From assembly GCF_056746865.1 (NCBI RefSeq), contig NZ_JBWKMP010000003.1: DNA of 64,000 nt; one strand, given 5' to 3'. Under the pieces are notes generated by a model. That model was not told the origin of the DNA. It ran no database searches and saw only the letters and a program-made list of their open reading frames with translations. Position numbers and translations under genes: made by a program. This DNA comes from a plasmid. Positions 12,436 through 54,639 of the stretch are shown here, one piece after another; within the stretch, counting starts at the first letter, position 1, and every line of letters starts with the position of its first letter.

Positions 12436-12492
12436 TGTTGCGATTGACTGTACAATAACCGTGCGGCGGGAATTTCATCGCTCGAAAATGTA

Positions 12493-12604: not shown

Positions 12605-12611
12605 CATGCCG

Positions 12612-12850
12612 TCGTAGCAAATTCTGCGACCAGGTTTGACAGCCTGAATACTTACGCGGACAACCGCACATTTCCGATATTGCGGTATTTTTGTGTCCGT
12701 AAAACCACGTTACGCCCGAATTATGGTGGGGCGTGATGGGGAGGCTTCGGCCTGCTGGTTTCGTAAGTGCCAGTCTGTCAACCCTGTCACGTCCTGCCAC
12801 CTGTTTGACAGCGGGTCGCAGGTTGTTTATCAACTTACGAGGCCGTAACT
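12612..12850 (+). ncRNA. Candidate c4-like antisense RNA / structured leader upstream of the icd-like gene
   Basis: About 240 nt without an ORF between promoter and icd-like start; tttgacag (12632, 12811) complementary to ctgtcaac (12773); P1 immI uses a C4 antisense RNA at the equivalent position. Confidence 0.35.
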
Positions 12851-28000: not shown

Positions 28001-28380
28001 TGTACGAGGCTACTAAATTACGCACTGAGGATGCGATGCACATTGGTTGGGACATCATCACCTGCAAGATAACATCATGCAAGGCTACACGCACAGACGC
28101 CGGACACAAGAGCACAATATCAGGTTATGTCGTGATGTCAGTCAGGAGTGTGCGCATACGCTTCAGATGGAAAGCCTGCCAGGTTACATCATCAATGCCG
28201 CTTACCGTCGAGCAGGATTATTTATGCTTACCCGAAATAGACGGAGCGTTGCTGGTGGGCAATAGTGGTCGAAAAGCCGATTTTGAAGCCAGTCTGAAGA
28301 TGGCGCAGGCGGTGATCAACAAACATAAAGGGAAGTGGGAGGCAAAAGTTAAGCATGTTGTTCGTTTATCCCGCTGGTAG
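27997..28380 (+). CDS. Hypothetical protein, start coupled (ATGA) to the upstream gene
   Basis: 127-aa ORF with overlapping stop-start. Confidence 0.35.
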   Translation: MMYEATKLRTEDAMHIGWDIITCKITSCKATRTDAGHKSTISGYVVMSVRSVRIRFRWKACQVTSSMPLTVEQDYLCLPEIDGALLVGNSGRKADFEASLKMAQAVINKHKGKWEAKVKHVVRLSRW

Positions 28381-28410
28381 TGTTAGCAAATTGATATTAA
28401 TTTTCTAATA
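28381..28410. promoter_or_regulatory. Operator-like palindrome TGTTAGCAAATTGATATTAATTTTCTAATA
   Basis: Dispersed motif family member upstream of the lpa-position gene. Confidence 0.45.
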
Positions 28411-28487
28411 CATCATGTTTTTGACAGTCTTCTCAGTATTAACAAGCTGATTATCATCCCCTCGGTCTTTTTCTATCCGGGGGATAA

Positions 28488-28880
28488 ATGGAGCAAATCA
28501 GTAGCGCCGAAATAGCGGATATCATGATCAGGGCTAACTGCTATCTGACGGTCACCGAAATCACCAGCCGTGCAAAAGCACAATATCCTCACCTTCATGT
28601 GTCGCGCGTAAACGTAAATAACATCATACGTTTTTTTGTTCGTTCCAGTCGTGCCATTTGCGAAATAGACGACCGCGTATACCCCCGGAAATATTGGTTA
28701 CATGGCCTGAATGGATACCAGTTCAAGGTGCGCGGGCGCACTCCTGAATTCGGTCGGCTGTTGGTGAAAAACACCAACCGAAAGATAGAAGCTCAATTAC
28801 GAAAGGAGCAGCGTCAGTTGGTGGCGATGACTAACCAGCTATGGAACGCCGCTGTGAAAAAACGTGAGGCTTCCCTATGA
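28488..28880 (+). CDS. Hypothetical regulator-like protein in the Lpa position (immediately upstream of pacA-like)
   Basis: 130 aa, RBS ggggg-ataa-ATG, overlaps the pacA-like start; function inferred from P1 synteny only. Confidence 0.4.
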   Translation: MEQISSAEIADIMIRANCYLTVTEITSRAKAQYPHLHVSRVNVNNIIRFFVRSSRAICEIDDRVYPRKYWLHGLNGYQFKVRGRTPEFGRLLVKNTNRKIEAQLRKEQRQLVAMTNQLWNAAVKKREASL

Positions 28881-30241
28881 CGTTAATTAACTGGGAAGCG
28901 CATCGAGCTAAGTTCCTGGAGTTAAGAGAAGAAACCGGGATCACCATAAAAGAATATTGCGAGCAGCATGACCTCAGCTTTAACACCGCCAGAAAGCATC
29001 TCAATATGAAAAAAAATGAGGTTAAGGCGAAAGCTAAGGCTACCGGGAAAAGTACAAAACAGCGCGCAAAAAGCAGCGCCACCGGCTCAAAAAAAGAGCA
29101 AAAAAAGGCTAATAAAAGCACAGAATTTACAAAAACTGACAAATCGTTGGCTGGTGGACGGTTCCGCGCCATGCCGCAAAAACAAAATGCGGATCACAAA
29201 GAAAAGCCAAGTAATAACAACAAGATACACAAGGATGTGAAGGGATCATTTTGTGATGAAATGGGAGAAATGATCCCTAAAAGCAGCGATAAAGCCCAAC
29301 GAAACAAGGGATCATTGCAAATGATCCCTGATTCATCAGCTCAAAGCACCACTTTGCCTGCCACCAACGTCGCCCGTGAGATGATGAAGAACGGCGCGAC
29401 TGAACATTTACGACTTGCGATACAGATGGCGCAGGAACGAGCAATTCAGTATCAGGCTATCGTTGACCAGGAAGCGGAGCGACTACAGGAAGAGATTGAC
29501 GCCCTCGGTGATACACAGCCAGAGGGGATGCACCCAGGGCAGCGTCTTCTCGGACTGATCAGCGATGCGGCCTACTACATGAATGACTTTATCACCAGGC
29601 TGGCAGCCATCTATCAGAACGAGCAGAAGCTACGCCAGGGGGATGAAAAACTTGCGCAGGGCGCGCGTCAGCAGGCATTCAGGGAGGCTGAGGCCAGAGA
29701 AAAACTGGCGATTGCCCGCCTACAAGCCGAGCAGCGTGGCAAGGAGATTGAGTATCGCATTGGCGCTGACGCACGCGCCGCCAGGGTTATCGCCGCCGCT
29801 ATACGTATGCGTGAGCGCGAGGAGCTGGATGATATAGGTGTTGCTGAATATATCGAGCGGCAGGGCGTCAGTGTCCCGGCTATCCTGGCGGCACGAGCGG
29901 CAAAAGCGATCTCACTTCTGGAGCCTCCGGTTTCTGACGTTAACGATGTTGATGATGAGCAACTGGATAAAGAGGCGAAGCAGTTTGCCGAGCAACAAGC
30001 TGGACTCCCACAATGGCTTGCACAACGCCGGGCTGAAGTAGCGAAAATCGTTGATAGGCTTGGGATGGGGGATTACGACCGGAACGGAGAACGTAAAGCC
30101 GGTGAATTTGAGGCCAATGATGAAGACCTGAATATAGACCCTTCCGCGACGGCTGATATCTACGGTGATTATGACGCGGGGGATACCGGTTTTGATGCTG
30201 TAGATGACGAGATTGCGATAGACCAGCCGGAGGATGACTAA
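28877..30241 (+). CDS. PacA-like terminase small subunit (contains pac-like hexamer cluster)
   Basis: 454 aa immediately upstream of and coupled (ATGA) to the large terminase; HTH-like N-terminus, acidic C-terminal tail; internal cluster of Dam-site hexamers like the P1 pac site inside pacA. Confidence 0.55.
   Translation: MTLINWEAHRAKFLELREETGITIKEYCEQHDLSFNTARKHLNMKKNEVKAKAKATGKSTKQRAKSSATGSKKEQKKANKSTEFTKTDKSLAGGRFRAMPQKQNADHKEKPSNNNKIHKDVKGSFCDEMGEMIPKSSDKAQRNKGSLQMIPDSSAQSTTLPATNVAREMMKNGATEHLRLAIQMAQERAIQYQAIVDQEAERLQEEIDALGDTQPEGMHPGQRLLGLISDAAYYMNDFITRLAAIYQNEQKLRQGDEKLAQGARQQAFREAEAREKLAIARLQAEQRGKEIEYRIGADARAARVIAAAIRMREREELDDIGVAEYIERQGVSVPAILAARAAKAISLLEPPVSDVNDVDDEQLDKEAKQFAEQQAGLPQWLAQRRAEVAKIVDRLGMGDYDRNGERKAGEFEANDEDLNIDPSATADIYGDYDAGDTGFDAVDDEIAIDQPEDD
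29191..29327. promoter_or_regulatory. pac-like site: five GATC-containing hexamers (GGATCA x3, TGATCC x2) including two inverted copies of AATGATCCCT
   Basis: Hexamers at 29191, 29243, 29271, 29309 and 29322; aagggatcatt and aaatgatccct each occur twice. Confidence 0.5.
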
Positions 30242-31749
30242 TGGCTGGTGGTCGTAAGATTAAGTGCGTCACCAGTGATCCACGTTGGCGCGATATGGTT
30301 ATCAGGTATCGATACAACTTTACCCAGGCGGTTGTCGATATTTTTGGGATGTTCCCCTCCCACCAGCAGCAGCAGATCATTCAGTCAGTGCAGGAGACGG
30401 GGAGCAGGACGACCGTTACGTCCGGACACGGAACGGGTAAGTCGTCCCTTACCGCGATGTTGCTACTAATTTTTATGATCCTGTTCCCCGACGCCCGCGT
30501 CATTATTGTTGCGAACAAAATAGGCCAGGTAAAAACAGGCGTATTCAAATACGTGAAACAGTTTTGGGCGAATGCTGTTAAGCGCCACGGCTGGTTACAG
30601 ACCTATTTTGTCCTGTCTGACACCATGTTTTATGAGCGTTCCCGTAAAGGGATATGGGAAGTGCTCTGTAAAGGTTATCGACTCGGTAACGAAGAGGCAC
30701 TGGCGGGGGAGCACGCGGAGCATTTACTGCTAATCCTTGATGAAGCATCGGGCATATCCGATAAGGCGATTAACGTCATGACGGGGGCGTTAACGCAGAA
30801 AGATAACCGTATGCTCATGCTTTCCCAGCCTACGCGTCCAAGCGGTTACTTTTATGAATCTCACCATTCAAGGGCAAAGGCAGAAGGCAATCCGGAAGGT
30901 GTCTGGACGGCAATAGTCCTTAACTCTGAAGAATCACCATTCGTTGAACCGAGCTTTATTCGTGAGAAATTGCTGGAGTACGGCGGCAGGGATTCGCTGG
31001 AGTACATGGTTAAGGTGCTGGGCCAGTTCCCGCGTGCAATTAACGGGTATTTGCTTGGTCGTGATGAGTGCGACCGCGCCGCACGGCGTAAAGTGTTGCT
31101 GGAGAAAGATTGGGGCTGGGTAGCGACCGCTGACGTCGGTAATGGTCGCGATAAATCGGTGCTCAATATATGCAAAGTATCCGGTTATCGTGAGAAACGA
31201 CGCGTTGTGAACTTTAAGATACTGGAGATGCCAGGCACTATGGACCCGTTGGCTTTTGCCGACTTTATCTATAACGAATGCACTCCTGATAAATACCCGA
31301 ACATCACCATTGCTGTGGATGCTGATGGCTTTGGTTCAGATACGTGTGCGCAGCTTGTCCGCCGTGGTGCTAATCCCGTTCGCATCCGTTGGGGTAAGCC
31401 TATGTTTGCGCTAAGAGACAGAGAACGCTTTGTCAATCAGCGTGCTTACGCCAATATTATGGCAGGGGATGCCATTAAATCCGGGCGTATGCGTATCGAT
31501 AGTGACCCCAAAACCGCAGATCAGGCATCAAAAATCCCGTATATGCTTAACGAAGAAGGGAAGGTAGCGATGATGCGCAAGGAGCACATGCGGCAGAAGT
31601 TAAACATCAAGTCACCGGACAGATGGGATACCTACTGCTTCACTATGCTGGTGGATTACGTGCCTGCTAATGAAGACATTGGCGCAGAACTCGCAACATT
31701 CCGCGATCAGGTGTTGGCAGAAGTGGATATTCCTGATATTGACATTTAA
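30241..31749 (+). CDS. PacB-like terminase large subunit
   Basis: 502 aa; P-loop GHGTGKSS, Walker B LLLILDEASG, C-terminal nuclease-like region with VDADGFG; coupled to the upstream small-subunit gene. Confidence 0.75.
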   Translation: MAGGRKIKCVTSDPRWRDMVIRYRYNFTQAVVDIFGMFPSHQQQQIIQSVQETGSRTTVTSGHGTGKSSLTAMLLLIFMILFPDARVIIVANKIGQVKTGVFKYVKQFWANAVKRHGWLQTYFVLSDTMFYERSRKGIWEVLCKGYRLGNEEALAGEHAEHLLLILDEASGISDKAINVMTGALTQKDNRMLMLSQPTRPSGYFYESHHSRAKAEGNPEGVWTAIVLNSEESPFVEPSFIREKLLEYGGRDSLEYMVKVLGQFPRAINGYLLGRDECDRAARRKVLLEKDWGWVATADVGNGRDKSVLNICKVSGYREKRRVVNFKILEMPGTMDPLAFADFIYNECTPDKYPNITIAVDADGFGSDTCAQLVRRGANPVRIRWGKPMFALRDRERFVNQRAYANIMAGDAIKSGRMRIDSDPKTADQASKIPYMLNEEGKVAMMRKEHMRQKLNIKSPDRWDTYCFTMLVDYVPANEDIGAELATFRDQVLAEVDIPDIDI

Positions 31750-31786: not shown

Positions 31787-32824
31787 TTACCAGAGTTTTG
31801 CCGCGTACATCGTTTGTGTGAATGTGTACCCATAGCGTTCTTCAACGCTTTTACCGTATTTTTTCCTGGCTTCAGTAAGGCGGATGCCTGTCAGGTCATC
31901 GCCGGAGGCAATCATAACTTCCAGTAGTTCCAGGTCCATTTTATCCAGCCTTGCCATTGCATCTTTAGCCTCTTGAATTTTCCGGCTAACGATCTGGTGT
32001 ATGGCTGGATCGGCTTCGGCCAGCATTTTATCTGATTTGTTTTTTAAACTCTGATTGCGGATATCAATGTTTCTCAGGATATATGACTTCACGACGTAGC
32101 TTGGCTGCTGCTTTTCCAGATCACGAACCCGATAAAGGTCAAATTCGCCGAGAAGTCCGCACGGAAGCGGTTTAATGCCAGTGTAAATGGTAAGGGTGCG
32201 GCGCTCACCAACGTTGTTAACAACGGGAATCTCTGTGTTTGCTTTTTTTGCAAAGATCAGCGCACCGTGCGTACCCACTCTGAAGCGTGAAAGTCCATTG
32301 TTGCCCTCAATATTGGTGGTAATCACCACATCGGTATAACCTTCTTTTCTTGCGCGGTATACCTCGCCCTCACGTTCAGCGGCGAAGAATCTGCGTTCTT
32401 CTTCAAGCGCACCGACAACCTGTGAAAATATCCTGTTTTTCATGCTTTTCTTTATAGTTTTATCGTATTTTTTCAGCAGGTCTTCGCGCGTAAATGTTCT
32501 CGTTGTGGTTGCGCTTTGCATAACGATGTGCGTACTCTGATTAGTATCCTCAACAATGAATGGGATCGGTAAATAAACCGACTCAACAATGTTTGAGGCT
32601 TTGTCATCATCCTTGCGACACAGATCAACAAAGGCTTTCCATTCGGCTATGCATTTTTCAGCTTCTTCTAATACAGCCGGATCATGTGTTAATGCAACAT
32701 GGCGAAATTCCTCGCCAACATAACTGGTATCATGGAAAACAGAGTTTGCGACCACCAGCTCTTTCCACCTTTCAGCGGTTTGCAGGAACCGTTTGTACTC
32801 ATTCTCGATCGACTTCTTACTCAT
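31787..32824 (-). CDS. Hypothetical 345-aa protein; candidate immunity repressor (P1 c1 position: convergent with pacB, next to lox/cre)
   Basis: Best start is the internal ATG (MSKKSIENEY) with RBS aggaa; an operator motif TGTTAGAAAA lies immediately upstream on the coding strand; no recognisable domain by eye. Confidence 0.45.
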   Translation of the reverse strand: MSKKSIENEYKRFLQTAERWKELVVANSVFHDTSYVGEEFRHVALTHDPAVLEEAEKCIAEWKAFVDLCRKDDDKASNIVESVYLPIPFIVEDTNQSTHIVMQSATTTRTFTREDLLKKYDKTIKKSMKNRIFSQVVGALEEERRFFAAEREGEVYRARKEGYTDVVITTNIEGNNGLSRFRVGTHGALIFAKKANTEIPVVNNVGERRTLTIYTGIKPLPCGLLGEFDLYRVRDLEKQQPSYVVKSYILRNIDIRNQSLKNKSDKMLAEADPAIHQIVSRKIQEAKDAMARLDKMDLELLEVMIASGDDLTGIRLTEARKKYGKSVEERYGYTFTQTMYAAKLW

Positions 32825-32843
32825 TATTCCTACTCGATTTAGT

Positions 32844-32853
32844 TTTCTAACAT
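32844..32853. promoter_or_regulatory. Operator motif TTTTCTAACA in the promoter of the repressor-candidate gene
   Basis: Dispersed motif family member; a second copy at about 32927-32941. Confidence 0.45.
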
Positions 32854-33019
32854 AAAAGTCCTGTGACAAATTTATGCTGAATAACAAGGTGAGTAAAGGA
32901 TAAAACCGCTTTTTTTTGATTGTTCCTATTAGAAAATGTAACCAGGAGCGGCTACCGCATGGCTGACGGATTTGCGAAGTGATCTGGTCGGTGTTTTTTT
33001 GGGAAAAAAGTTCCGATTT

Positions 33020-33053
33020 CTAACTTTAAATAATTGGCATTATTTAAAGTTAG
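33020..33053. promoter_or_regulatory. lox-like recombination site (13-8-13): CTAACTTTAAATA ATTGGCAT TATTTAAAGTTAG
   Basis: Perfect 13-bp inverted arms around an asymmetric 8-bp spacer; same architecture as loxP and 9/13 arm identity to it; 150 bp upstream of the Cre-like gene. Confidence 0.7.
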
Positions 33054-33204
33054 GCTATAATCTCCAGTAAACAGGCAGTATTGACAAGGATGAAAAATCA
33101 TGCCTCGAATCAAAGGCTTGAATTTTGAAAATTAACTTATAACTACCCTGTCAGTTTTCTATTTTTCACGTAGCGTTATCTGTATATAGAGGTTTAATAG
33201 TTTC

Positions 33205-34233
33205 ATGGGTGAACTAGTTATCTCCGGCGGTTCTGGTGGTTTTCTGCGCGATATTGGCACCGAATACCAGGAAGCTGCAAAAAACTTTATGCAGTTCATG
33301 AACGACCAGGGAGCTTATGCTCCAAATACGCTTCGAGATCTCCGTCTGGTGTTTCATTCCTGGGCGCGGTGGTGTAATTCGCGCCAGCGCCCCTGGTTCC
33401 CGATTACGCCGGAAATGGCCCGCGAGTATCTTCTCCAGTTGCATGAGGCCGATCTGGCCTCGACCACCATTGATAAGCACTATGCCATGCTTAACATGCT
33501 GCTTTCGCAATGTGGCCTCCCGCCGCTGTCGGACGATAAAAGTGTGTCTCTGGCCATGCGGCGCATCCGGCGCGAAGCGGCAACGGAAAAAGGCGAGCGA
33601 ACAGGCCAGGCTATACCGTTGCGGTGGGATGATCTGAAATTGCTCGACGTGTTGCTGTCCCGTTCCGAGCGGCTGGTGGACCTGCGCAATCGGGCGTTTC
33701 TCTTCGTGGCATACAATACCCTGATGCGTATGTCAGAAATCTCGCGCATCCGCGTCGGAGATCTGGACCAAACAGGTGACACTGTAACGCTGCATATTTC
33801 ACACACGAAGACCATCACGACCGCCGCCGGACTTGATAAGGTGCTTTCTCGTTACACTACCGCCGTACTGAACGACTGGCTGGAGGTGTCCGGACTTCGA
33901 GAACATCCGGACGCGGTGCTATTCCCGCCAATACACCGCAGTAATAAGGCCAGAATCACGACAACGCCCCTTACTGCACCTGCAATGGAGAAAATATTCA
34001 GCGATGCCTGGGGGTTGCTGAACAAACGAGATGCCACGCCGAACAAAGGAAGATACCGGACGTGGACAGGCCATAGTGCGCGTGTTGGTGCGGCAATTGA
34101 TATGGCTGAGAAACAGGTGTCAATGGTCGAGATCATGCAGGAAGGTACATGGAAAAAGCCCGAAACACTTATGCGATATTTGCGCCGTAGCGGGGCATCC
34201 GTTGGTGCAAATAGTCGCCTGATGGACTCATAA
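33205..34233 (+). CDS. cre: Cre-like tyrosine site-specific recombinase
   Basis: Colinear similarity to P1 Cre as I recall it (SWARWCNSRQRPWFP..., NMLLSQCGLPPLSDDKSVSLAMRRIRRE, WTGHSARVGAAIDMA, C-terminal Tyr in LMRYLRR); ORF-track start is non-ATG. Confidence 0.9.
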   Translation: MGELVISGGSGGFLRDIGTEYQEAAKNFMQFMNDQGAYAPNTLRDLRLVFHSWARWCNSRQRPWFPITPEMAREYLLQLHEADLASTTIDKHYAMLNMLLSQCGLPPLSDDKSVSLAMRRIRREAATEKGERTGQAIPLRWDDLKLLDVLLSRSERLVDLRNRAFLFVAYNTLMRMSEISRIRVGDLDQTGDTVTLHISHTKTITTAAGLDKVLSRYTTAVLNDWLEVSGLREHPDAVLFPPIHRSNKARITTTPLTAPAMEKIFSDAWGLLNKRDATPNKGRYRTWTGHSARVGAAIDMAEKQVSMVEIMQEGTWKKPETLMRYLRRSGASVGANSRLMDS

Positions 34234-34277
34234 ATTAATTTTCTAACAACCTTTTTAGACAGTGCATTTTAATGTAA

Positions 34278-34306
34278 AGTACCCTCGCCTATTGCGGAGG
34301 GTACTT
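34278..34306 (+). terminator. Strong hairpin after cre-like (no T-run)
   Basis: aagtaccctcgc-ctatt-gcggagggtactt. Confidence 0.4.
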
Positions 34307-37104: not shown

Positions 37105-38191
37105 AAACATCACCGAATTACCAGAGTGGAGAGAGCTGGTAAGCAAATATAGCCATGACTGGGCATTAGCAGCAGAAGAGTTGATGGGTGTTAAGTTAAC
37201 CCACCAGCAAAAGCTAATTGTTGAGGCGATTCAACAAAAAGGTTCAGCAGTCAGCGTCACCACTCCTGAAGGGATAGGCCAAAAGACGGTTATCGCTATA
37301 ATTAGTATTCTTTATACAATCCTGATGCCTGAGTCTAAAACGGTTATTGTTTCCCCAAAGTTCTATAATTGTCGCAGGCAAGTTATCCAATACATAAGTA
37401 CGTATTGGGATAGAGTCAGTAACAGAATCCCATTGCTGGGAGAATATTTTAAAGTCGACGGAAACGGCATCAATCATCGTTACCGGGAATATTGGGGCTG
37501 CGAAATTAAGCCATATCACCGAAATTATGAGGAAGGTTTCGGTGGATATTATGCTGAACATCTTTTAATCATTGTTACGGAGGCGGCTCTTGCTGGCGAT
37601 CGGCTATTCAGCATGTTAAGAGCATCGTTAGTAAGTGACGATTCACGTATACTTTTAATGTCCGCTCCTTCAGAGGAGGAGCATGGACACTTTTACGATT
37701 CCCATCATGGTCGTGCAAAATCAGAAGAAAATCCATGTGGTATTTATACAGCCATCAAGCTGAACGCAGAAGATACCCCCATTATTTCACAAGGTTATCT
37801 TGATAACATTGCAGAAATATATGGTGGTAAAAACAGCGATTACTACCGTCGCATGATTCTTGGTGAGTTTCCAGGTATTAGGGAGGCTGTTCTTGAATCA
37901 GATATGCCGAAAACAATGCGCTTTTCGATGCCTGATGGTAGTGAATGGATAATGCCATTACGAGTGATAGCCCGGCATCATGCACAGCACCACGCCAAAA
38001 AACATGGCGTTACAACATTGGAGTGGTTGAAATCGCACACCATTCCACTCTTCACTGCAGATCACAATGCTATCGTTGAGTGGGCAAAAACAATTCCGTG
38101 GGAGAATGTCGCTGAATACGCCCACATGCTAAAACCGCCGAAAGACAGGCAAGAAATTAGCTGGCTGACAGCAGAAAAAATCATTGAGTGA
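37085..38191 (+). CDS. Terminase-large-subunit-like ATPase-domain paralog with degenerate Walker motifs and no nuclease domain
   Basis: Alignable to the PacB-like gene (HQQKLIVEAIQQ / HQQQQIIQSVQE; HGHFYDSHHGRAKSEENPCGIYTAIKLNAEDTP / [33 protein letters not shown]), but P-loop reads GIGQKT instead of GTGKS and Walker B reads VTE instead of LDE; 368 aa without the VDADGFG nuclease region. Confidence 0.6.
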   Translation: MLMLTPKNITELPEWRELVSKYSHDWALAAEELMGVKLTHQQKLIVEAIQQKGSAVSVTTPEGIGQKTVIAIISILYTILMPESKTVIVSPKFYNCRRQVIQYISTYWDRVSNRIPLLGEYFKVDGNGINHRYREYWGCEIKPYHRNYEEGFGGYYAEHLLIIVTEAALAGDRLFSMLRASLVSDDSRILLMSAPSEEEHGHFYDSHHGRAKSEENPCGIYTAIKLNAEDTPIISQGYLDNIAEIYGGKNSDYYRRMILGEFPGIREAVLESDMPKTMRFSMPDGSEWIMPLRVIARHHAQHHAKKHGVTTLEWLKSHTIPLFTADHNAIVEWAKTIPWENVAEYAHMLKPPKDRQEISWLTAEKIIE

Positions 38192-38226
38192 TAGTAGGAA
38201 GCCCGCCTGGTTGAGCGGGCTTCTTT

Positions 38227-38607
38227 TCAAATATTGGAACCATATAGTTCACGTAGTTTATCCGCTACTGAAGATACGGGGATTTCACCAGTTGCAGCCC
38301 CCACCGCAAGTTCCACCAGCACGGGAGAATCATATACCTGTATACCGTTACGGCGTAGAAATAGCAGCGCACTGTTTAGCGCGGTACGCTTATTGGCATC
38401 ATTGAATATATGCCCTCTCGCTGTAGCCACCAGGTAGGTGGCGGAGACTTCGAAAAGGTCGGTGATCTCTTCGTAGGCAACTCTGGCCTGAACTCTCCCG
38501 ATAATGGCCTCTGCCCTGCCCGGATCTGACATGCCAGGCAGGCCGCCGTAGCGGCTTATATTCGCATCATGAAGCGCAATAAGTTCTTCCGGTGATATAT
38601 GCCTCAT
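38227..38607 (-). CDS. doc: Doc toxin (Fic-fold kinase) of the phd/doc addiction module
   Basis: 126 aa; [78 protein letters not shown] matches P1 Doc as I recall it almost residue for residue. Confidence 0.92.
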
Positions 38608-38828
38608 TATCGGTTAACCAGTTCCTTGTTGGTGGAGTCCAGGGTGTCAAACAGGGATGCAAATTCAGCATCCAGCGCCGCTTTTTTGTAGGCTTCGAAA
38701 GTAGCCTTGCTGACAATTACTGCTGGCTCACGGCCTCTGCGGGTGATTTCAACCTCTTCCCCGGCTTCAACATTGTTGAGCACTTCAGAAAGGTTGCCAC
38801 GCGCGGTACGGAAGTTAATGGATTGCAT
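38607..38828 (-). CDS. phd: Phd antitoxin
   Basis: [73 protein letters not shown] matches P1 Phd as recalled; stop overlaps the doc start. Confidence 0.92.
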
Positions 38829-38900
38829 AAACACCTCGTGTACTCGTTATGTGTACACAATTATAAACTTCACAGGCATAAAGCACCAGCACTTTGCAGC

Positions 38901-39290
38901 TTAAATAACCGGACAATCATCAAATTCCCCACTTCGGGCATCATTGATGACATGAGTGATCACACCAAAAACAGCATTACTGCCCGTGTATCCATCGTCA
39001 TCTACTGGTAACGCCTCTTTCTTCCCGGTGCTTAAGTCCTCCAGGTGCTGGCGCGGATACTTCCTGTATCTCTTTATGCGATATTCACCCTCCATAGCGC
39101 ACACAAGCAGAGAACCATCAACCGGAGTAAGCGAGGAATCAACCACCAGCAAAGCACCCTGCAATATTCCCTCACGGTGATGGCTATCAGCTGCCCGCAT
39201 GAAGTAGGTCGCTGAAGGATGTCTAATTATCTGCTGATCAAGAGAAATTCGGCTTTCAACATAATCCGCCGCAGGAGAAGGGAAGCCCAT
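38901..39290 (-). CDS. humD: HumD-like UmuD' homolog
   Basis: GFPSPAADYVESRISLDQQIIRHPSATYF aligns with UmuD; lacks the N-terminal autocleavage segment like P1 HumD; lies upstream of phd/doc as in P1. Confidence 0.8.
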   Translation of the reverse strand: MGFPSPAADYVESRISLDQQIIRHPSATYFMRAADSHHREGILQGALLVVDSSLTPVDGSLLVCAMEGEYRIKRYRKYPRQHLEDLSTGKKEALPVDDDGYTGSNAVFGVITHVINDARSGEFDDCPVI

Positions 39291-39413
39291 AGCGTTTTAC
39301 CTCAATGATACTGTTTATTCATACAGTATACATTGAAAAGGCATAGTTTGTGAAAGCGGGGTTTGTAGGCGCGCCACGCTGGGGGCTAATCACATTTCTC
39401 CCCCATCTTGCCG

Positions 39414-39665
39414 TTATTTTTTTGGTGCATCCTCGTTCTGATACACCGGATCGCTCCCTTTTGGCAACTGGAGGCTTAACTGCCGATAGTGCCGTAACCG
39501 TTCCATGAAATAGGTGCGCAGATTCTCTGGTTGCTCGCGGGCTACCTGTTCAGCTATGACAGGTATGTTCAATCGCTCTTTGTACGCCACACCGCTGGCA
39601 GCCAGATCAACGTTAACCTTATCCCGTTCTTCCTGACTTTTAGCTGCAATATTCCAGTCGCTCAT
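39414..39665 (-). CDS. hot: Hot-like homolog of DNA polymerase III theta subunit
   Basis: [43 protein letters not shown] aligns with E. coli HolE. Confidence 0.8.
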
Positions 39666-39667
39666 AT

Positions 39668-39940
39668 TTAAGGCTCACATTTCCAGATGGTATTCTGAAC
39701 ACCCGAACCGGGCGCAAGATTAGGGTTGGCGTTCGCGCTATGCTGATATACTGCTTTAGACTTCCCATATTGCTGACAGGCTTTATCTGCGGTTTTTTGC
39801 AGGCTATCCAGGCCATACCAACCATCTGACTGTATGCTTACCTTTTCACCGTCGTTGTATTGCACCATTGCACACCCAGATATAGCCAGTATCGCACCGA
39901 CAATAACGCTTTTCCATAAAACTCTATGCAACATATACAA
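39668..39940 (-). CDS. Putative lipoprotein
   Basis: Signal peptide with lipobox LAISGC. Confidence 0.55.
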
Positions 39941-39979
39941 AAATCCCCTCTGTGAATTGAGGGGATTTTAGCATGGTGA

Positions 39980-40615
39980 TCAGATATCGGCCTTATTCGG
40001 AATTTTATCAGCCACCAGCGGCAATAAAGCCTTCGCCATTTCATGAACCAACATGGCATCAATGACGCCTAGCGTATGGCCCGGTTTAATGTTTAATGCC
40101 GCCTCAAGATGACTCCTTTCCAGGCCGCTTTTCTCGGCTTGTTTATGACGATCTGGTGTAATAACTTCGCCCAAAACGCGGCTAATTTTTTCTCGTAATT
40201 GCTGGGTGCCAGCACACTTGATCGCTGTATCGTGGAGACGGTTAACCAGTTCGCGATAAACATGCGGCTTAATGCGGATACGTTCACCGGTGACGCCCTT
40301 TCCTGGCGCTGGCACCGAACTATCCGGATAGTTGCCAGCCTCGTAAGCTACCCGCAGCCAGTGCATGAATGTTTCAGTGGACACACAACCACAGTCCACA
40401 TCGATTTTTCCGCGTTGCTGTTCCAGCCACTGCTCAAAATTCAATCTACACGTATTACTTTCATGTTGCTCTTTTTGTCTCAAGGCCAGCATCTGCTGGG
40501 CTATTTCCAATACTTCATCTGCCGTATATCCAGCACCGTGACCATACATTTCGATACGGGAAATAATCTCTGATATACGCTCTTCAGTGATTCTGGTCAT
40601 TTCTTTTTGCGCCAT
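39980..40615 (-). CDS. Hypothetical protein sharing a ~45-aa segment with the C-terminus of the DUF4406 fusion
   Basis: KPHVYRELVNRLHDTAIKCAGTQQLREKISRVL versus APHIYRELVNALRDIAAVYHGTEQLRERLAHTI in 52539-53150. Confidence 0.5.
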   Translation of the reverse strand: MAQKEMTRITEERISEIISRIEMYGHGAGYTADEVLEIAQQMLALRQKEQHESNTCRLNFEQWLEQQRGKIDVDCGCVSTETFMHWLRVAYEAGNYPDSSVPAPGKGVTGERIRIKPHVYRELVNRLHDTAIKCAGTQQLREKISRVLGEVITPDRHKQAEKSGLERSHLEAALNIKPGHTLGVIDAMLVHEMAKALLPLVADKIPNKADI

Positions 40616-40968
40616 TTCTTTTCACATTCCTTAGTCCATTTTTCAATGTTCATTTTGGCAATATCAGTCATTCCATCACCTAAGAAATACTTTTTCCGGT
40701 ATGTCTTGCACTTAAACCACACTACAACAGCCACCAGCCAGAAAATAAAAGGCCATACAGCAATACCAACGACAGCCGCGATAAAGCCCAATAGCCATAA
40801 ATGAAGCTCTCCAACTTCTGTTTCCGGCAATATTCTTAAAGAATTAAACAGCAGGCTGAACGAATGGTCGTATGCATTGGCGGTATAAGACATGCAATCC
40901 ATATAATTAAAGTCATAGCCTGCGGCTGCCGCCCATAATGGGCGGTCAAGAAAATGTTTTAGTGTCAT
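40597..40968 (-). CDS. Hypothetical membrane protein
   Basis: Two or three hydrophobic helices, basic C-terminus. Confidence 0.45.
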   Translation of the reverse strand: MTLKHFLDRPLWAAAAGYDFNYMDCMSYTANAYDHSFSLLFNSLRILPETEVGELHLWLLGFIAAVVGIAVWPFIFWLVAVVVWFKCKTYRKKYFLGDGMTDIAKMNIEKWTKECEKKWRKKK

Positions 40969-40977
40969 TATATAAAT

Positions 40978-41271
40978 TTAAGGTTCAGACCAGTTATCTT
41001 CAATAGCAATGCTTAATCTTTGTAGCCATTCTGCTAATTTCAGCATTGCTTCTCTTTCGCTTAAACCACGAGGAAAATCATCAAGCGAAATTGTTGGCTT
41101 GAATCCCCCGCAATTATCCATTTCAACTGTCAGATTTTGTTCCAGCACGGTATTTCTTACGCGGCTATTGTGCCGAAGCAAATATACTGAGCGTGATTTA
41201 TTGGTTTTGTGGTCTAGCTTATATTCGGTAAGTATCATCTGGCTTTTGCCATGATTATTACCTCTCCACAT
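40978..41271 (-). CDS. Hypothetical protein (start trimmed to the internal ATG with RBS)
   Basis: ATG (MWRGNN) preceded by tgaggtaag; the longer 129-aa ORF-track version overlaps an upstream small ORF. Confidence 0.4.
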   Translation of the reverse strand: MWRGNNHGKSQMILTEYKLDHKTNKSRSVYLLRHNSRVRNTVLEQNLTVEMDNCGGFKPTISLDDFPRGLSEREAMLKLAEWLQRLSIAIEDNWSEP

Positions 41272-41278
41272 ACTTACC

Positions 41279-41401
41279 TCACTTAATAAAACAACTCCAT
41301 GCGTAGTTGATGATTTTTTCCCACGTAATATAAATCTGCACTCCGGCAGTAAAACCAAAGCCAACAATTGCTGAAAAAATCAAAACATTTACTTTTGACA
41401 T
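41279..41401 (-). CDS. Small hydrophobic peptide (40 aa)
   Basis: MSKVNVLIFSAIVGFGFTAGVQIYITWEKIINYAWSCFIK; below the ORF-track cutoff; stop lies next to the start of 40978-41271. Confidence 0.3.
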   Translation of the reverse strand: MSKVNVLIFSAIVGFGFTAGVQIYITWEKIINYAWSCFIK

Positions 41402-41449
41402 TATAAATTTTCTCTCGGTGTCGTAGGTGATAGCACCATAATTGATAAT

Positions 41450-41683
41450 TTAGTGAGTTAGCAGTTCCATTTTTTTGATGATTTCCGCATGAGCATCATC
41501 GTTATCAACACTTAGCTCGTTTAATGCTTCTCGCACTACATCAACTTCTTCAGGCTGAAAGAAGTCGTCGCGGTAATCACCAAATAGAACCGAAACCAGC
41601 CTGCCACCAGCAACATCAAGATTGGCGCTAACAGGTGGCTCTTTGCCATCCTCAAATTCGACTACAAAAGTTAATTTTCCCAT
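41450..41683 (-). CDS. Hypothetical acidic protein (77 aa)
   Basis: ORF with conserved operon orientation. Confidence 0.45.
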   Translation of the reverse strand: MGKLTFVVEFEDGKEPPVSANLDVAGGRLVSVLFGDYRDDFFQPEEVDVVREALNELSVDNDDAHAEIIKKMELLTH

Positions 41684-41759
41684 CGTTACCCCCAGAAGAT
41701 AAAAATAGCGGCAATCGCCATAGCTACGCCTACAATCGCAAATGCTTCAGGCCAGCTTA

Positions 41760-42017
41760 TTACCTCACCTCCAGTCTCCATACCGCCTGACCAATCCGGC
41801 TGGCATGGGTATCTTTGGATACTGTTCCATCTTTAGCCAGCTCCATAAGAATTTTGCGCAAATCTGCCGAACGCCATTCTTCATCAGGAAATTCCTTCTC
41901 CATTGCCAACCGCAGATTCCAGGTTGCTATCGTGAATGGATATTCCCCGCCGAGAGCTTTCTCTTGCAGGGCAGCACGGGAACGTATCACCTGCAAAACC
42001 TTCTCTTTTACATCCAT
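41760..42017 (-). CDS. Hypothetical protein (start set at the ATG overlapping the upstream stop)
   Basis: Translational coupling with 42017-42715. Confidence 0.4.
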   Translation of the reverse strand: MDVKEKVLQVIRSRAALQEKALGGEYPFTIATWNLRLAMEKEFPDEEWRSADLRKILMELAKDGTVSKDTHASRIGQAVWRLEVR

Positions 42018-42715
42018 CATTTTGCCTCCTGCGGCGGTTCTGGTAGCGGCATCCAGTGTGATGGTATCCACGACGCACCAGGTATTACCCACCCATCATT
42101 AGCGTCAGGATGCCCCGGGATGTAAGTCGCCCATTTCATTCGCCAGTCACCTTTCCTGTCAAACTCCCTGGCAACAAGAACGGCTGTTTTGGTATCCGGC
42201 ATTCGCTCACTACAGCTTATCCAACTATCCGGAATTACCGGATAGTTGCCCGACAGCTTGTTCAACTTGTAAGTCTGGCTTACAGGTTTGGCACCATGAA
42301 GCATGGCGTCGCTCCGCTCTATGCCATCCAGCGCGATTCGCAGTGCCTGAATTGTGGTAGAGCTATCGTTTGGGGCTATTCCATATCGCTCGAATACAGC
42401 TAAATGGTTGCGCATAATCTCAGGCGTAAGCTCTTTGTAAGCATAAGCAAGAGACTCTGATGCATTATCCGGCACAACCGACGCAAGCGCGGCAGCATAA
42501 ACAGGAATAACGTCCACTTGCTCTTTATTGCTTTCATCCGTTAAAGCCCAGAATAATTTCCCGGCCGGATGTTTGAAAATATAAGCAATTGGTTCTGCTT
42601 CCAGCGATGCCAGAGCAATTTCATACGACCGTCGCTCAATATTGTCTCGCACGTCCAGGCTGCTGATACGCTCTTTGATTTCTTTAATCAGTTCTTTGTC
42701 GGTTAAAGTGGTCAT
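42017..42715 (-). CDS. DUF551-like protein
   Basis: C-terminal ...DGWVIPGASWIPSHWMPLPEPP resembles the DUF551 C-terminal motif common in enterobacterial prophages. Confidence 0.5.
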   Translation of the reverse strand: MTTLTDKELIKEIKERISSLDVRDNIERRSYEIALASLEAEPIAYIFKHPAGKLFWALTDESNKEQVDVIPVYAAALASVVPDNASESLAYAYKELTPEIMRNHLAVFERYGIAPNDSSTTIQALRIALDGIERSDAMLHGAKPVSQTYKLNKLSGNYPVIPDSWISCSERMPDTKTAVLVAREFDRKGDWRMKWATYIPGHPDANDGWVIPGASWIPSHWMPLPEPPQEAK

Positions 42716-42725
42716 AAATTATGCC

Positions 42726-42962
42726 TCAGTTGTATCCGATTGGATTAACCGCAACAAGAACGCCATCCGCGAACAAATCTTTAATGAGGTGTTCGCTCGG
42801 CTCGCCTTTTTCGTACTCTTCAATAAGGTAAGTGTCTCCATCTTCATTGATATAAACAGGAAGGATGGAGCCGTTGATAAAGTAGGTTCCGTTGTTATCG
42901 AGGATTTTTGCCTCGGCGATTTGTTTTTTGGTAAAACGCTCTTCTTTTGTCAAAGTTGCCAT
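42726..42962 (-). CDS. Hypothetical protein (78 aa)
   Basis: Internal ATG start MATLTKEERF. Confidence 0.4.
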   Translation of the reverse strand: MATLTKEERFTKKQIAEAKILDNNGTYFINGSILPVYINEDGDTYLIEEYEKGEPSEHLIKDLFADGVLVAVNPIGYN

Positions 42963-42963
42963 A

Positions 42964-43182
42964 TCAGCTTTCCTTATATGGGTTGATTTTGTTGTGCAAT
43001 GTGTTGAACGACGCCCATACCACGTCGTTATACAATTCAATAACTGGCTCAATTATTTTCCCGATTCCCCATACCAGAATTAACGGGGATATCGGTATCA
43101 TCAACACGATAAACAGAATGAGAAACAGAAATTCTGTTATTCGGCTTCTTTGCGGATATTCTTTTCTGAATAATGTTGGCAC
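42964..43182 (-). CDS. Small membrane protein (GTG start)
   Basis: RBS aaggagag 4 nt upstream of GTG; hydrophobic core FLFLILFIVLMIPISPLILVWGIG. Confidence 0.35.
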   Translation of the reverse strand: MPTLFRKEYPQRSRITEFLFLILFIVLMIPISPLILVWGIGKIIEPVIELYNDVVWASFNTLHNKINPYKES

Positions 43183-43183
43183 A

Positions 43184-43405
43184 TCACTCTCCTTTGCCCG
43201 CAGCTTTCGCCTGCTCTTTAGCAAGTCGCTCCGCTTCTCTGAAATCCCAATCCACTCGATGTGCGATATCAATTGCAGAACGCACGGTTCGTTCAATTAG
43301 CGTATCCAGGTTATCAATTGTCATTGCCATATCTGGATTTCGAGATAAAATCTCCGCCCTCTGAATCTGCCAGTTGTTACAGGTTTCAAGTAATGAGTTA
43401 GCCAT
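43184..43405 (-). CDS. Hypothetical protein (73 aa)
   Basis: Internal ATG start MANSLLETC. Confidence 0.35.
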   Translation of the reverse strand: MANSLLETCNNWQIQRAEILSRNPDMAMTIDNLDTLIERTVRSAIDIAHRVDWDFREAERLAKEQAKAAGKGE

Positions 43406-43406
43406 A

Positions 43407-43595
43407 TCACTCTCCTTTAGTGCGCAAGTGGTTTTTCCAGCGGTTTTGCGCCGCGCTGGGCTTTTTGCAAAAACCACAATCCATCATCCCGTAATATTTC
43501 ATCAACCCCATCCGTCGGTTGCTGAGTCTCACCCACTGCCAGACGCCAGGAGCGTTTCTACGAACTAACAGAATCTTTGCTTTACGGTTTTTCAT
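43407..43595 (-). CDS. Small basic protein, copy 1 of a tandem pair (MKNRKAK...)
   Basis: Shares N-terminus MKNRKAK and the DNA block ttacggtttttcat with the upstream copy. Confidence 0.3.
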   Translation of the reverse strand: MKNRKAKILLVRRNAPGVWQWVRLSNRRMGLMKYYGMMDCGFCKKPSAAQNRWKNHLRTKGE

Positions 43596-43768
43596 CTTAC
43601 AGCGTACCCTTTCTTCCGCCTGTTCTGTGACGCAGTAGGCTTACGCTTTGCGGCAAAAGCCACCTGACCAAATGGATGGAGTACCGCTATCTTATGGTTG
43701 CTAATAACCAGCTCCACCACACGCACAGGTCGCTGTAAAAAAAGTCGTTTTGCCTTACGGTTTTTCAT
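43592..43768 (-). CDS. Small basic protein, copy 2 of a tandem pair (MKNRKAK...)
   Basis: 58 aa, stop overlaps the start of copy 1 (ATGA). Confidence 0.3.
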   Translation of the reverse strand: MKNRKAKRLFLQRPVRVVELVISNHKIAVLHPFGQVAFAAKRKPTASQNRRKKGYAVR

Positions 43769-43940
43769 CGCTTTGCTCTCCTGCGTCTCTTTGCTGCTCG
43801 TCGTGCCGCTGCAATACCGGTATGGCGGCGCTTTGGTGCCGGGATGATGTTGTCAGCCATCAGGACATACGGCTTTGCAATTAGCGCAGAAGCCCAAAAA
43901 CGAGTCGGGTACGGTAACAAGCCGATACATGCCACACGCA

Positions 43941-44693
43941 TTACTCACCTCCTTTGATGCGAATGCCTGCGGCGCGGATTGCAGCGATGACTTCAGAAAC
44001 TTTGTATGCCATTACCGTTTGGTAATCATCGTGAAAATCTGTTCGATGAAGCATGCTGCTACGTTCCGGGAGCGATATTTCCCGAGCATCCAGTTCCTTA
44101 ACGCGTTCCTCCAGTTCGTAGACCCTGCATTGTTCTCTATCATCAATCAGATATACCCCAAGACATTCGCTTTCTACCCAACCGCCAAAATCATGATCGT
44201 AACGCTCACATGAAAACTCACCGTCACCGTCCTTTGTTGGAATGGTGTAACTATCTAATGGGCCACCATATGTCGGCACATTTCCCAATGTTGGATGCTC
44301 AATCCACATGAAAAATGCACGTCCGGTTATTGGGCAAATATCTGGCCGCCATTGGTTACGAACAGCCTTGGTTTCGGATAATTCTTCAGCGTGTTGTTTT
44401 ACTTCCTCAAGCTCAACTCTCAGCTTCCCTACCGTTAGCGCAATATCCTCGTTCTCCTGATCGCGGCGTTTTATGTATTGCTGGTTTCTTTCCCGTTCAT
44501 CCAGCAGCGCCAGCACGGTTTCTGGTCCGGTCAGAAATTTGAAGGCGTTGAGCGCATCAATATCCACACCGTAATCTTTAAGTTCCTGTTCACTTAACAA
44601 ATCATCATCAGCTGGCAACATTAACAGGCGTTCCATTGCTGGAATTGCACGTTCCGCCGCCTCACGCAGTGCCTGGTAATTAATTTCGCTCAC
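43941..44693 (-). CDS. ead/Ea22-like family protein
   Basis: Contains [37 protein letters not shown] and C-terminal [10 protein letters not shown], shared with 50855-51529. Confidence 0.55.
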   Translation of the reverse strand: MSEINYQALREAAERAIPAMERLLMLPADDDLLSEQELKDYGVDIDALNAFKFLTGPETVLALLDERERNQQYIKRRDQENEDIALTVGKLRVELEEVKQHAEELSETKAVRNQWRPDICPITGRAFFMWIEHPTLGNVPTYGGPLDSYTIPTKDGDGEFSCERYDHDFGGWVESECLGVYLIDDREQCRVYELEERVKELDAREISLPERSSMLHRTDFHDDYQTVMAYKVSEVIAAIRAAGIRIKGGE

Positions 44694-45352
44694 TGGTTGC
44701 CTCCTTTGCGAAGCTGGGCAGCAAAGTCAACTAACCACTCAGTCATTTCAACCTTCCCTACCAGGTCGGAACCAGGGTGCATACAGCAATCACTCTGCGC
44801 CGCTTTGAAATCCTTACACTCATATTCTTTGGCCACCAGATTTTTTGCAGCTTCTATAGCAGCATCCACCCCCTGCGCCCGCACTTCAGCCAGAAAAGCA
44901 TCGGTAGCTGGAGTTTCGCTGTGGTGTAGGGCATCGTTGATAATCATTGCAGCAACACCAGCCTGCCCTGCATCCGTGACCGACACATGCTCAAGAGTTA
45001 CGGCCATTGCGTGTTTCAGCCCAGCGTTCTCTGCCACCAGCGCAGCGATATTAGTCTCAAGCTCTGAAATTCGGCACGTGGCATCAATATTTGTGTCCTC
45101 CAAGCACTTAATTTCACCAAGCAGCTCCAGTGCAACCTTTGGGTTGAACGCGGCAACATGACGAGCGTTGTTCTCTGCATTTTTCTGTCCATCAAAGCCG
45201 GTCCATTTGATAACGTCTTCACATCGTTCATCACCGGGCGTGTGCACCGCATAAGTACCAGTATCCGTCGAAATAAATGCGACCCATTCGTCTGGTGTTG
45301 CCTTTTCTGCCGCCTCACGCAGTACCTGATAGTCAATTGTCATTCTCGCCAT
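44690..45352 (-). CDS. ead/Ea22-like family protein
   Basis: [14 protein letters not shown] block and C-terminal FAAQLRKGGNQ shared with paralogs. Confidence 0.5.
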   Translation of the reverse strand: MARMTIDYQVLREAAEKATPDEWVAFISTDTGTYAVHTPGDERCEDVIKWTGFDGQKNAENNARHVAAFNPKVALELLGEIKCLEDTNIDATCRISELETNIAALVAENAGLKHAMAVTLEHVSVTDAGQAGVAAMIINDALHHSETPATDAFLAEVRAQGVDAAIEAAKNLVAKEYECKDFKAAQSDCCMHPGSDLVGKVEMTEWLVDFAAQLRKGGNQ

Positions 45353-45966
45353 CCTTCACAGTTGTAATCACTACAGCCTTCAAAATCATATGGGCTGTAC
45401 TGCCAGGTTATTTTTCCGCAATGCGGACAATTCCAACGCACCTTCCCGCTTCGCGACTTCTTTCTTCTGTTCTGCTCTTTCAACCAGTCAGGCATGATCA
45501 AACCTGCGCCCTGAACCATTGTTCTGCGGTTAAAGTTATTGATATTGAACGTCCGGCGCTTTGCTGCATCAGCAATGGAAAATGGCAACCAAACTATTCC
45601 TGGTTCGTTTTTGTTGGCGACGCTAAAGATGGTCGCTTTACTGAAGTCATCTGTTGGCAATCCACCGTGTTGAAGCCAGTAAACATCGTTGCCGTTCCAG
45701 CTACCTTTTTTGTAGGCCACATACGCAGTGCAATCTGACTCAATCAGGCTTTCTGTAGGGATGTACTGGCAATCAACGTGCCACACAGCCATTGCATCCA
45801 CGCTATCAGCGCAAACAGGCTGATCGATATCTCGCCCACAATTCCAGGCTTTTTGGGCTTCTTCCAGCGTGTAAACATGAGCGCGATCGATATCAGAGCT
45901 ATAACCATTGCCGTTATGGCAATGGAATGAGGCGTTATTACCCACAGTTTCACGCAAGCACATCAT
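45340..45966 (-). CDS. Hypothetical protein with a C-terminal zinc-ribbon-like Cys cluster
   Basis: CPHCGK...C..C motif; start trimmed to an internal ATG. Confidence 0.4.
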   Translation of the reverse strand: MMCLRETVGNNASFHCHNGNGYSSDIDRAHVYTLEEAQKAWNCGRDIDQPVCADSVDAMAVWHVDCQYIPTESLIESDCTAYVAYKKGSWNGNDVYWLQHGGLPTDDFSKATIFSVANKNEPGIVWLPFSIADAAKRRTFNINNFNRRTMVQGAGLIMPDWLKEQNRRKKSRSGKVRWNCPHCGKITWQYSPYDFEGCSDYNCEGWRE

Positions 45967-45980
45967 GTAAAAACGGTTAC

Positions 45981-46220
45981 TCACTGGTTGCCTCCTTGGC
46001 GGAGTTGCGCTGCGATGCATGAAAAAAAAGACTCCCGAGTGTGACAGTTAAGAGCTGGTGCGAACGCCGCGTTAAGAACGGCGGCATCACAGCCGTCATC
46101 AATATAGAGCGCAATTTTTTTCTCCAGGCGCGCTTTGGCTTCCTGCAACTGCATACCCCGGCACGCACGCGGGATATAATCAGCAATTTGAGCGATAGCT
46201 TTTTCGTTCTGTTTAAACAT
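45981..46220 (-). CDS. Small protein carrying the Ea22-family C-terminal motif (AAQLRQGGNQ)
   Basis: Motif shared with 44690 and 49817. Confidence 0.4.
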   Translation of the reverse strand: MFKQNEKAIAQIADYIPRACRGMQLQEAKARLEKKIALYIDDGCDAAVLNAAFAPALNCHTRESFFSCIAAQLRQGGNQ

Positions 46221-48228: not shown

Positions 48229-48270
48229 AATGTATACCGACTCTGTTTTGTTCCGAGCGGTAAAATAATA

Positions 48271-48300
48271 TGTTAGAAAATTAAAATCAATATTCTAACA
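48271..48300. promoter_or_regulatory. Operator palindrome TGTTAGAAAATTAAAATCAATATTCTAACA
   Basis: Inverted half-sites of the dispersed motif, upstream of the minus-strand operon. Confidence 0.55.
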
Positions 48301-48332
48301 CGGTTTTGAGTGCATAAACGATGTGTTCAGGA

Positions 48333-53150: not shown

Positions 53151-53345
53151 CAAAGTTTCCCCAGGAACGTTACGCAAAAGTTAATGAGAGCAAAGAGTTC
53201 AATGCCCAGCTCAAACAACGCCAGGACAGTGAAAAACAGGGCATATAGCAACCCAATTTCTGTACCGGATTGCTGGTGGATTGCACTTATTGCGACAAGC
53301 ATCATGACCTCCTGATATAGCGTCTGAAAAAAGTATCTTCATTTT

Positions 53346-53377
53346 GTGTTAGAAAATCAATTTTGATTTTCTAACAC
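53346..53377. promoter_or_regulatory. Perfect operator palindrome GTGTTAGAAAATCAA-tt-TTGATTTTCTAACAC
   Basis: 15-bp arms are exact reverse complements; sits between the divergent minus-strand operon and the ref-like gene. Confidence 0.6.
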
Positions 53378-53421
53378 TTTTGATCAACCATAGCGGCGAT
53401 GTAGACAAACCGGGTATTTCT

Positions 53422-54624: not shown

Positions 54625-54639
54625 GTGTCATGCCATCGC

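Follow-up and report, generated by a model that had tools for sequence, protein, structure and literature searches.

Introduction

Cre-type tyrosine recombinases act with one monomer on each arm of the target site and with two sites synapsed in a tetramer; the catalytic tyrosine cleaves the DNA, and strand exchange proceeds through a Holliday junction that is then resolved. The Dre/rox pair of phage D6 was reportedly described by Sauer and McDermott in 2004. Since 2004-2009 it has served as a standard tool of genome engineering.

Dre recombines rox without cross-reaction to Cre/loxP, and VCre and SCre are likewise without cross-reaction to Dre/rox (PMC3082901; PMC4777119). Dre is nevertheless promiscuous on pox and some other related sites (PMC4957104; PMC10250229). 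A single nucleotide separates the arms of pox, the target of Panto from Pantoea, from those of rox; the two enzymes, Dre and Panto, are 52% identical and cross-recombine rox and pox (PMC4957104). A palindromic target beside a Cre-type gene, as found at the locus described here, is common to Panto/pox, Vika/vox, VCre/VloxP, Nigri/nox and the YR series, and this arrangement is the logic of published screens for new recombinase systems (PMC10250229). In phage P1, Cre/lox keeps the plasmid prophage monomeric, stabilising its inheritance (PMC2409434), and the P1 record names cre 'cyclization recombinase'.

Here, we analyse a palindrome and an adjacent recombinase gene in a 64-kb stretch of plasmid DNA, referred to throughout as the window. 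The original prediction for this locus described a lox-like site of novel sequence which, together with a Cre-like recombinase, would make up a distinct and potentially orthogonal pair. We conclude that site and gene are, almost certainly, the Dre/rox site-specific recombination module of a D6-like, P1-family phage-plasmid.

Results

The palindrome upstream of the recombinase gene contains rox

Positions 33020-33053 of the window read CTAACTTTAAATAATTGGCATTATTTAAAGTTAG. The two arms (33020-33034 and 33039-33053) are 15 nt each and perfectly complementary, and they enclose an asymmetric centre, TGGC, at 33035-33038 (Table 1). Perfect inverted repeats with arms of at least 13 nt and a short spacer occur only three times in the whole 64-kb window, one of the other two being a divergent repressor-operator pair, so the palindrome is not a chance feature. 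We also considered it as a transcription terminator and rejected this, as it is AT-rich, has no T-run and is absent from the calls of the terminator scan.

The canonical 32-bp rox corresponds to 33021-33052. As the reference for D6 rox and dre we used the GenBank annotations together with subsequent open-access publications in which the rox sequence is given. In an alignment of the intergenic regions, these 32 positions match the rox misc_recomb feature of the D6 immC record (AY753669.1, 4909-4940) at 32 of 32, which is the arrangement TAACTTTAAATAAT-TGGC-ATTATTTAAAGTTA. They are the reverse complement of the published rox oligonucleotide 5'-TAACTTTAAATAATGCCAATTATTTAAAGTTA-3' (Chuang et al., PMC4777119) and reproduce the native D6 orientation, '(A)TAACTTTAAATAAT TGGC ATTATTTAAAGTTA(G)', quoted by Suzuki and Nakayama (PMC3082901). 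Over 34 bp, the sole difference from D6 is the outermost left base, which makes the outermost flanking pair C..G here rather than A..G and gives arms of 15 nt where D6 has 14. When 32890-34300 was compared with phage records by megablast, Escherichia phage D6 alone was returned, and the match falls on the features annotated there as 'dre: tyrosine recombinase' (5093-6121 in AY753669.1) and 'region of crossover (rox) site for Dre recombinase'.

Much of the geometry originally proposed is borne out. A 34-bp site with perfectly complementary 13-nt arms is present beside a Cre homologue, its end lies 151 nt from the ATG of the recombinase gene (about 150 bp had been stated), and its arms differ from the loxP arm ATAACTTCGTATA at four of 13 positions, namely 8, 9 and 10 and the outer base, position 1. 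The division into 13-8-13 was borrowed from loxP, whose asymmetric centre is 8 bp, and does not describe the symmetry of this site, with a centre of 4 bp. The 8-bp 'spacer' of that division, ATTGGCAT, does match the published crossover region: Chuang et al. equated precisely these positions, ATGCCAAT in the published orientation, with the loxP spacer, and their mutagenesis of rox suggests a crossover region wider than the 4-bp asymmetric centre (PMC4777119).

Table 1 Features of the rox-dre locus and predicted C1-type operators in the window. The operators given are those listed among 15 full-length sites.
Feature	Position	Strand	Remarks
Full C1-type operator	11282-11302		
Full C1-type operator	12491-12511		
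Full C1-type operator	23449-23469		
Full C1-type operators	24694-24727		Divergent pair, 24694/24707
Full C1-type operator	24844-24864		
Full C1-type operators	28379-28412		Divergent pair, 28379/28392
pacA	28877-30241	+	ORF; order and size as D6 pacA
pacB	30241-31749	+	ORF; order and size as D6 pacB; pacA-pacB are terminase genes
c1	31787-32824	-	Prophage repressor homologue, 345 aa; 80% identical to D6 C1; divergent from dre
Full C1-type operator TCGATTTAGTTTTCTAACATA	32834-32854	+	24.7 bits; 10-30 nt upstream of the opposite-strand c1 start codon
TTTCTAAC 8-mer	33017-33024	+	Overlaps left end of rox; 7.5 bits; 'half-site' of the original prediction
rox	33020-33053	.	Recombination site; perfect 15-4-15 inverted repeat; inner 32 bp identical to D6 rox
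Promoter-like TTGGCA-16-TATAAT	33034-33061	+	11/12 consensus matches, near-consensus sigma-70; reads towards dre
dre	33205-34233	+	Dre allele, Cre-family tyrosine recombinase, 342 aa; 94% identical to D6 Dre
Full C1-type operator ATAAATTAATTTTCTAACAAC	34230-34250	+	25.7 bits; overlaps dre stop codon, upstream of the orf2-orf3-dut operon
Full C1-type operators	48269-48302		Divergent pair, 48269/48282
Full C1-type operators	53345-53378		Divergent pair, 53345/53358
Full C1-type operator	53989-54009		

The adjacent gene encodes a natural allele of Dre

The recombinase gene is intact, and its product is the same length as D6 Dre and aligns to it without gaps, with 322 of 342 residues identical. This places it in a discrete identity class, the next group being about 45% identical or less, and squarely in the Dre clade; Panto and other Cre-type recombinases are far more distant. 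Chains of Cre crystal structures (PDB) match residues 22-341 with an E-value of about 4e-72 in HMMER, and Pfam detects a C-terminal Phage_integrase domain (PF00589, 2.4e-16) and an N-terminal SAM-like domain (Phage_int_SAM_1, PF02899, 3.1e-05). NCBIfam gave only sub-threshold XerC/XerD matches to the protein and nothing finer than the superfamily level. The catalytic residues R175, E178, K202, H290, R293, W316 and Y325 are invariant in an alignment of the protein with Dre and Cre, and the HMMER alignment to the Cre PDB chains shows the same conserved catalytic motifs. R175, H290, R293, W316 and Y325 carry these numbers in published Dre numbering also (PMC4777119). Cre has been switched experimentally from loxP towards rox by the changes K43R, R259P and G263K (Karimova et al., PMC4957104). 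At these discriminating positions, where Cre has K43, R259 and G263, the window protein and Dre both have R44, P259 and K263.

These data bear on the proposal of a new recombinase and target, distinct from and orthogonal to every characterised system. The four differences from the loxP arm, the different spacer and the identity of only 41% to Cre could be read in its favour. However, the full 32-bp identity to rox, the close match to Dre and the shared specificity residues refute it by sequence identity, and we consider it vanishingly improbable. The functional reading, a lox-like target served by a Cre-like recombinase heterospecific to Cre/loxP, was right, and the pair is Dre/rox; orthogonality would be expected towards Cre/loxP, as published for Dre/rox, but not towards Dre/rox itself. 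The claim of novelty falls: as judged from these identities, the pair is already known, and neither the site nor the protein is novel. A RefSeq protein, WP_021551777.1, annotated only as 'tyrosine-type recombinase/integrase', is 100% identical to the window recombinase.

Site and gene have both been conserved

The dre gene of the window is 86.7% identical to that of D6 in nucleotide sequence, with dS of 0.70 and dN/dS of 0.042. Identity to D6 is 82% in the spacer that separates rox from the ATG, and rox together with the next 10 nt forms a run of 42 consecutive identities that includes the sequence TATAAT. No changes (0/32) are seen in rox itself beside a spacer that is 18% diverged; at the identity level of the spacer, 32 identities out of 32 would be expected with P of about 0.002. 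The exact 32-bp rox starts 184 nt upstream of the ATG in all five Dre-clade loci examined (the window, D6 and three others), and two variant rox sites occupy the equivalent position. The low dN/dS, the conservation of rox and its fixed offset indicate that site and gene are both maintained by selection, as for a working pair. The feature is in all likelihood functional, and we infer that this dre allele is active.

The 20 substitutions relative to D6 Dre raise the question of an allele that keeps its cognate site with altered activity or cross-reactivity, for example towards pox or sites of the lox8/lox11 type, on which D6 Dre is also active. Fifteen of them fall within the first 102 residues, inside the part that aligns to the Cre N-terminal domain. 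In published work, the activity of Cre-type enzymes is tuned by residues adjacent to those that set specificity (PMC7438526), and Dre is promiscuous on related sites (PMC10250229; PMC4957104). On the other hand, all of the substitutions miss the known catalytic and discriminating positions, the cognate site has not changed, and a dN/dS of 0.04 denotes conservative evolution; an allele with altered properties of this kind therefore seems very unlikely to us. We thus retain the assignment as a Dre allele acting on rox, for which activity or selectivity could differ quantitatively from that of the characterised Dre.

A repeated motif, very probably the C1 operator, flanks the cassette

The divergent gene upstream of rox encodes a protein with distant homology to P1 C1 (21% identity, E-value 1e-7) and a weak match to NCBIfam phage_rep_C1, below the curated cutoff. 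An 8-mer, TTTCTAAC, is present in 18 copies in the window, against 1.9 expected; no shuffled sequence reached 18. Eleven of the copies share the extended consensus TAAAATTAATTTTCTAACACA, which reads TGTTAGAAAATTAATTT on the other strand, where its AT-rich half resembles the P1 C1 operator ATTGCTCTAATAAATTT given in the P1 record. Operator annotations are absent from the D6 genome record, and the consensus was therefore built from the window itself. A full-length weight matrix scored 15 sites at 18.8 bits or more in the window, while the maximum in shuffled sequences was about 17 bits. Two of these sites flank the rox-dre cassette, and D6 carries the TTTCTAAC core at both equivalent positions (4718 and 6128, locus extract L001). 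Given its over-representation, its likeness to the P1 operator and the divergent C1-homologous gene, the motif TAAAATTAATTTTCTAACACA is very probably the operator of this D6-type C1 repressor.

One copy of the 8-mer overlaps the left arm of rox, and the original prediction took the letters atttctaac (33016-33024) as an operator-like half-site that hinted at repressor control. Those letters are present, and the motif is real and repeated. The copy at rox is at chance level, since shuffled windows give 9-21 sites each at about 8 bits or more, and its flanks group it with the copies that consist of the core only. It is also unconserved, being absent from D6 (TTTTATAAC) and from the loci of plasmids pCREC-TJ2-NDM and pBY63-1 (CTTCTAAC). 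Weight-matrix scoring thus rejects a full operator of about 17-21 nt overlapping rox: the 8-nt core is there, the flanks are mismatched, and the score is far below the 18.8 bits reached by full sites. The likeness comes from the T-rich flank that precedes the arm, whose first letters are (C)TAAC.

Between c1 and rox, the roughly 130 nt at 32890-33016 have no detectable homology to the equivalent D6 segment, save for a short TTAGAAAA block at about 32930-32937; its other strand, TTTTCTAA, holds seven of the eight operator-core bases. A terminator-like hairpin lies on the minus strand at 32955-32938.

A candidate promoter overlaps rox

A near-consensus promoter-like sequence begins within rox. 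Its -35 hexamer lies across the rox centre, with the -10 hexamer starting 3 nt past the right arm. The TATAAT is in the same position in D6 and in two other Dre-clade loci (L004 and pBY63-1, L007), in one of which the three bases between the right arm and the -10 hexamer differ while the hexamer is unchanged. We regard this element as a candidate dre promoter. Dre bound at rox could then repress its own candidate promoter, a possible form of autoregulation.

Alternatively, the main function of the palindrome could be to control transcription, as a repressor operator or by occluding a promoter of dre, instead of or besides serving as a crossover site. This view draws on the overlap of this promoter with rox, which is conserved with D6, and on the operator-core 8-mer across the left arm. 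There is also a precedent in P1, where an annotated C1 operator, Oc1e, and a promoter, P4cre, lie to the left of lox at a distance of 44-60 nt and the record adds the remark 'may control expression of cra and cre'. An exclusive control role is untenable, since experiments have proven rox to be a crossover site; moreover, the operator-like copy at rox is of chance quality and unconserved, and the full operators next to the cassette lie off rox. We judge this alternative unlikely. The reading of the palindrome as the crossover site of Dre is kept, and it may accommodate a dual role in which Dre also represses its own candidate promoter.

Distribution and natural variants of Dre/rox

Searching related genomes for the same site recovered it from 130 PLSDB plasmids; of 5426 complete E. 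coli genomes, 112 carry it, nearly always on a plasmid. Dre/rox had already been noted in E. coli H252 and DEC12A (Karimova et al., PMC4957104). Matches to the 1.4-kb region at 97-99% come from seven PLSDB plasmids of E. coli and E. marmotae with sizes of about 90-94 kb; one of them, NZ_CP085065.1, encodes the 100%-identical recombinase WP_021551777.1. Dre-like proteins of PLSDB, grouped by identity to the window protein, number 7 at 99% or more, 100 at 90-95% (the class of D6 Dre), 85 at 80-90%, 2 at 60-80% and 915 below 60%, where the P1 Cre-like proteins (about 42%) are found.

Several natural variants were observed. Plasmid pK91 of S. Typhi (NZ_CP029869.1; locus extract L006, 1316-1349) has the same 15-nt arms around a TAGT centre, together with a Dre-like protein that is 88% identical. 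This variant with its flanks is found in 36 PLSDB plasmids, pK91 included, and may be a natural heterotypic (non-cross-recombining) rox allele. In pCUVET16-559.2 (L008, 1316-1349), one base of the left arm has changed from A to G (CTAACTTTAGATAAT), and the adjacent Dre is of the 94% class. A plasmid of Serratia marcescens (NZ_OW849140.1; L009, 1064-1097) carries the palindrome TAACTTTATATAA-TGGGAC-TTATATAAAGTTA near a 45%-identical recombinase. The arms of this pox-like palindrome are one base off rox despite the distant enzyme, which fits the published finding on pox and rox (PMC4957104).

Two further plasmids carry exact rox with Dre-like genes of the 87-88% class as isolated cassettes on IncX3/IncY or IncFIB/IncN resistance plasmids. 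In pCREC-TJ2-NDM (L005, 4001-5216), the pair has IS26 on both sides and macrolide-resistance genes beside the cassette; in pBY63-1 (L007), it is located between IS26 and IS903B. In both plasmids the rox-dre module is captured outside intact phage-plasmids.

The wider locus is that of a D6-like phage-plasmid

The site lies in the intergenic region between c1 and dre, in the gene order lpa-like, pacA, pacB, c1 (opposite strand), rox, dre, two small ORFs and dut. D6 (AY753669.1; MF356679.1) has the same neighbourhood, pacA-pacB-c1-rox-dre-orf2-orf3-dut, as well as the same 32-bp site, recombinase length, -184 offset and flanking C1-type operator positions. The differences are the 20 amino acid substitutions, the outermost flanking pair, the segment left of the site and the C1 repressor, which is just 80% identical. 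In a plasmid that is 99% identical, pacA is annotated as 'DNA pacase A subunit'. P1 Cre/loxP shares the fold family, the catalytic residues and the position between c1 and the recombinase gene beside pacAB. In contrast, coi-imcBA separates c1 from lox in P1, and cra separates lox from cre; neither is present here.

Alignment to D6 covers about 45% of a 25-kb stretch, at 84.5%, and elsewhere there are matches to P1 or SJ46 at 96%. The wider window is a D6-like P1-family phage-plasmid. Its accessory content is mosaic: the region at about 38000-46000, with phd/doc, humD-like and ead/Ea22-like genes, has its matches in P1, SJ46 and RCS47 (about 96%) and in Stx-converting phages (98%) instead of D6, and a type I restriction-modification system adjoins phd/doc in the 99%-identical plasmid. 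Two C4 antisense-RNA loci are present on the plus strand at 12598-12804 and 54545-54755 (Rfam C4 at 12719-12804 and 54668-54755), the first with a c4-a1b1 target element and the second with an isrK-like RNA, and a full C1-type operator precedes each. This suggests two immI-like regions in one element. Three tRNA genes are encoded on the plus strand at 26040-26189 and 26897-26969, and a perfect 13-3-13 inverted repeat, TTCAATTTCCACA / TGTGGAAATTGAA, is found at 55143-55171.

Discussion

By analogy with Cre, the 342-aa recombinase, as a natural Dre allele, would bind both inverted arms of rox, two rox sites would synapse in a recombinase tetramer, and strand exchange would take place over the central region by way of a Holliday junction, with Tyr325 as the nucleophile. 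The presumed roles of P1 Cre/loxP, multimer resolution and circularisation, are expected to extend to this element. Multimers of the plasmid prophage would be resolved to monomers for stable inheritance, as in P1, and terminally redundant infecting DNA could also be circularised, as by P1 Cre/lox. A search in and near pacA for the P1-type pac signature, a cluster of TGATCR hexamers, found none, so that the circularisation role is proposed solely by analogy with P1.

A more speculative possibility, which we think quite unlikely, is that rox works as a regulatory switch. Its embedded dre promoter would be occluded by Dre and, in this lineage only, a C1 half-operator on the left arm might link recombinase expression or access to the site to the immunity state. 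Separately, TGGC and TAGT centres could act as natural 'incompatibility alleles' that block cointegration of co-resident D6-like phage-plasmids.

The locus carries little weight as a discovery, since Dre/rox has long been in use and the exact protein is already in RefSeq. It is useful as a calibration point, in that the original prediction identified a heterospecific Cre-like pair correctly with nothing but the raw sequence. It does show that natural Dre alleles (the 94% and roughly 88% classes) and rox variants (the TAGT centre and single-base arm changes) exist in sequenced plasmids, which could serve as a ready source of heterotypic rox sites or Dre variants. What remains of interest for this family of phage-plasmids is the possible rox-embedded promoter and the natural variation of the rox centre.
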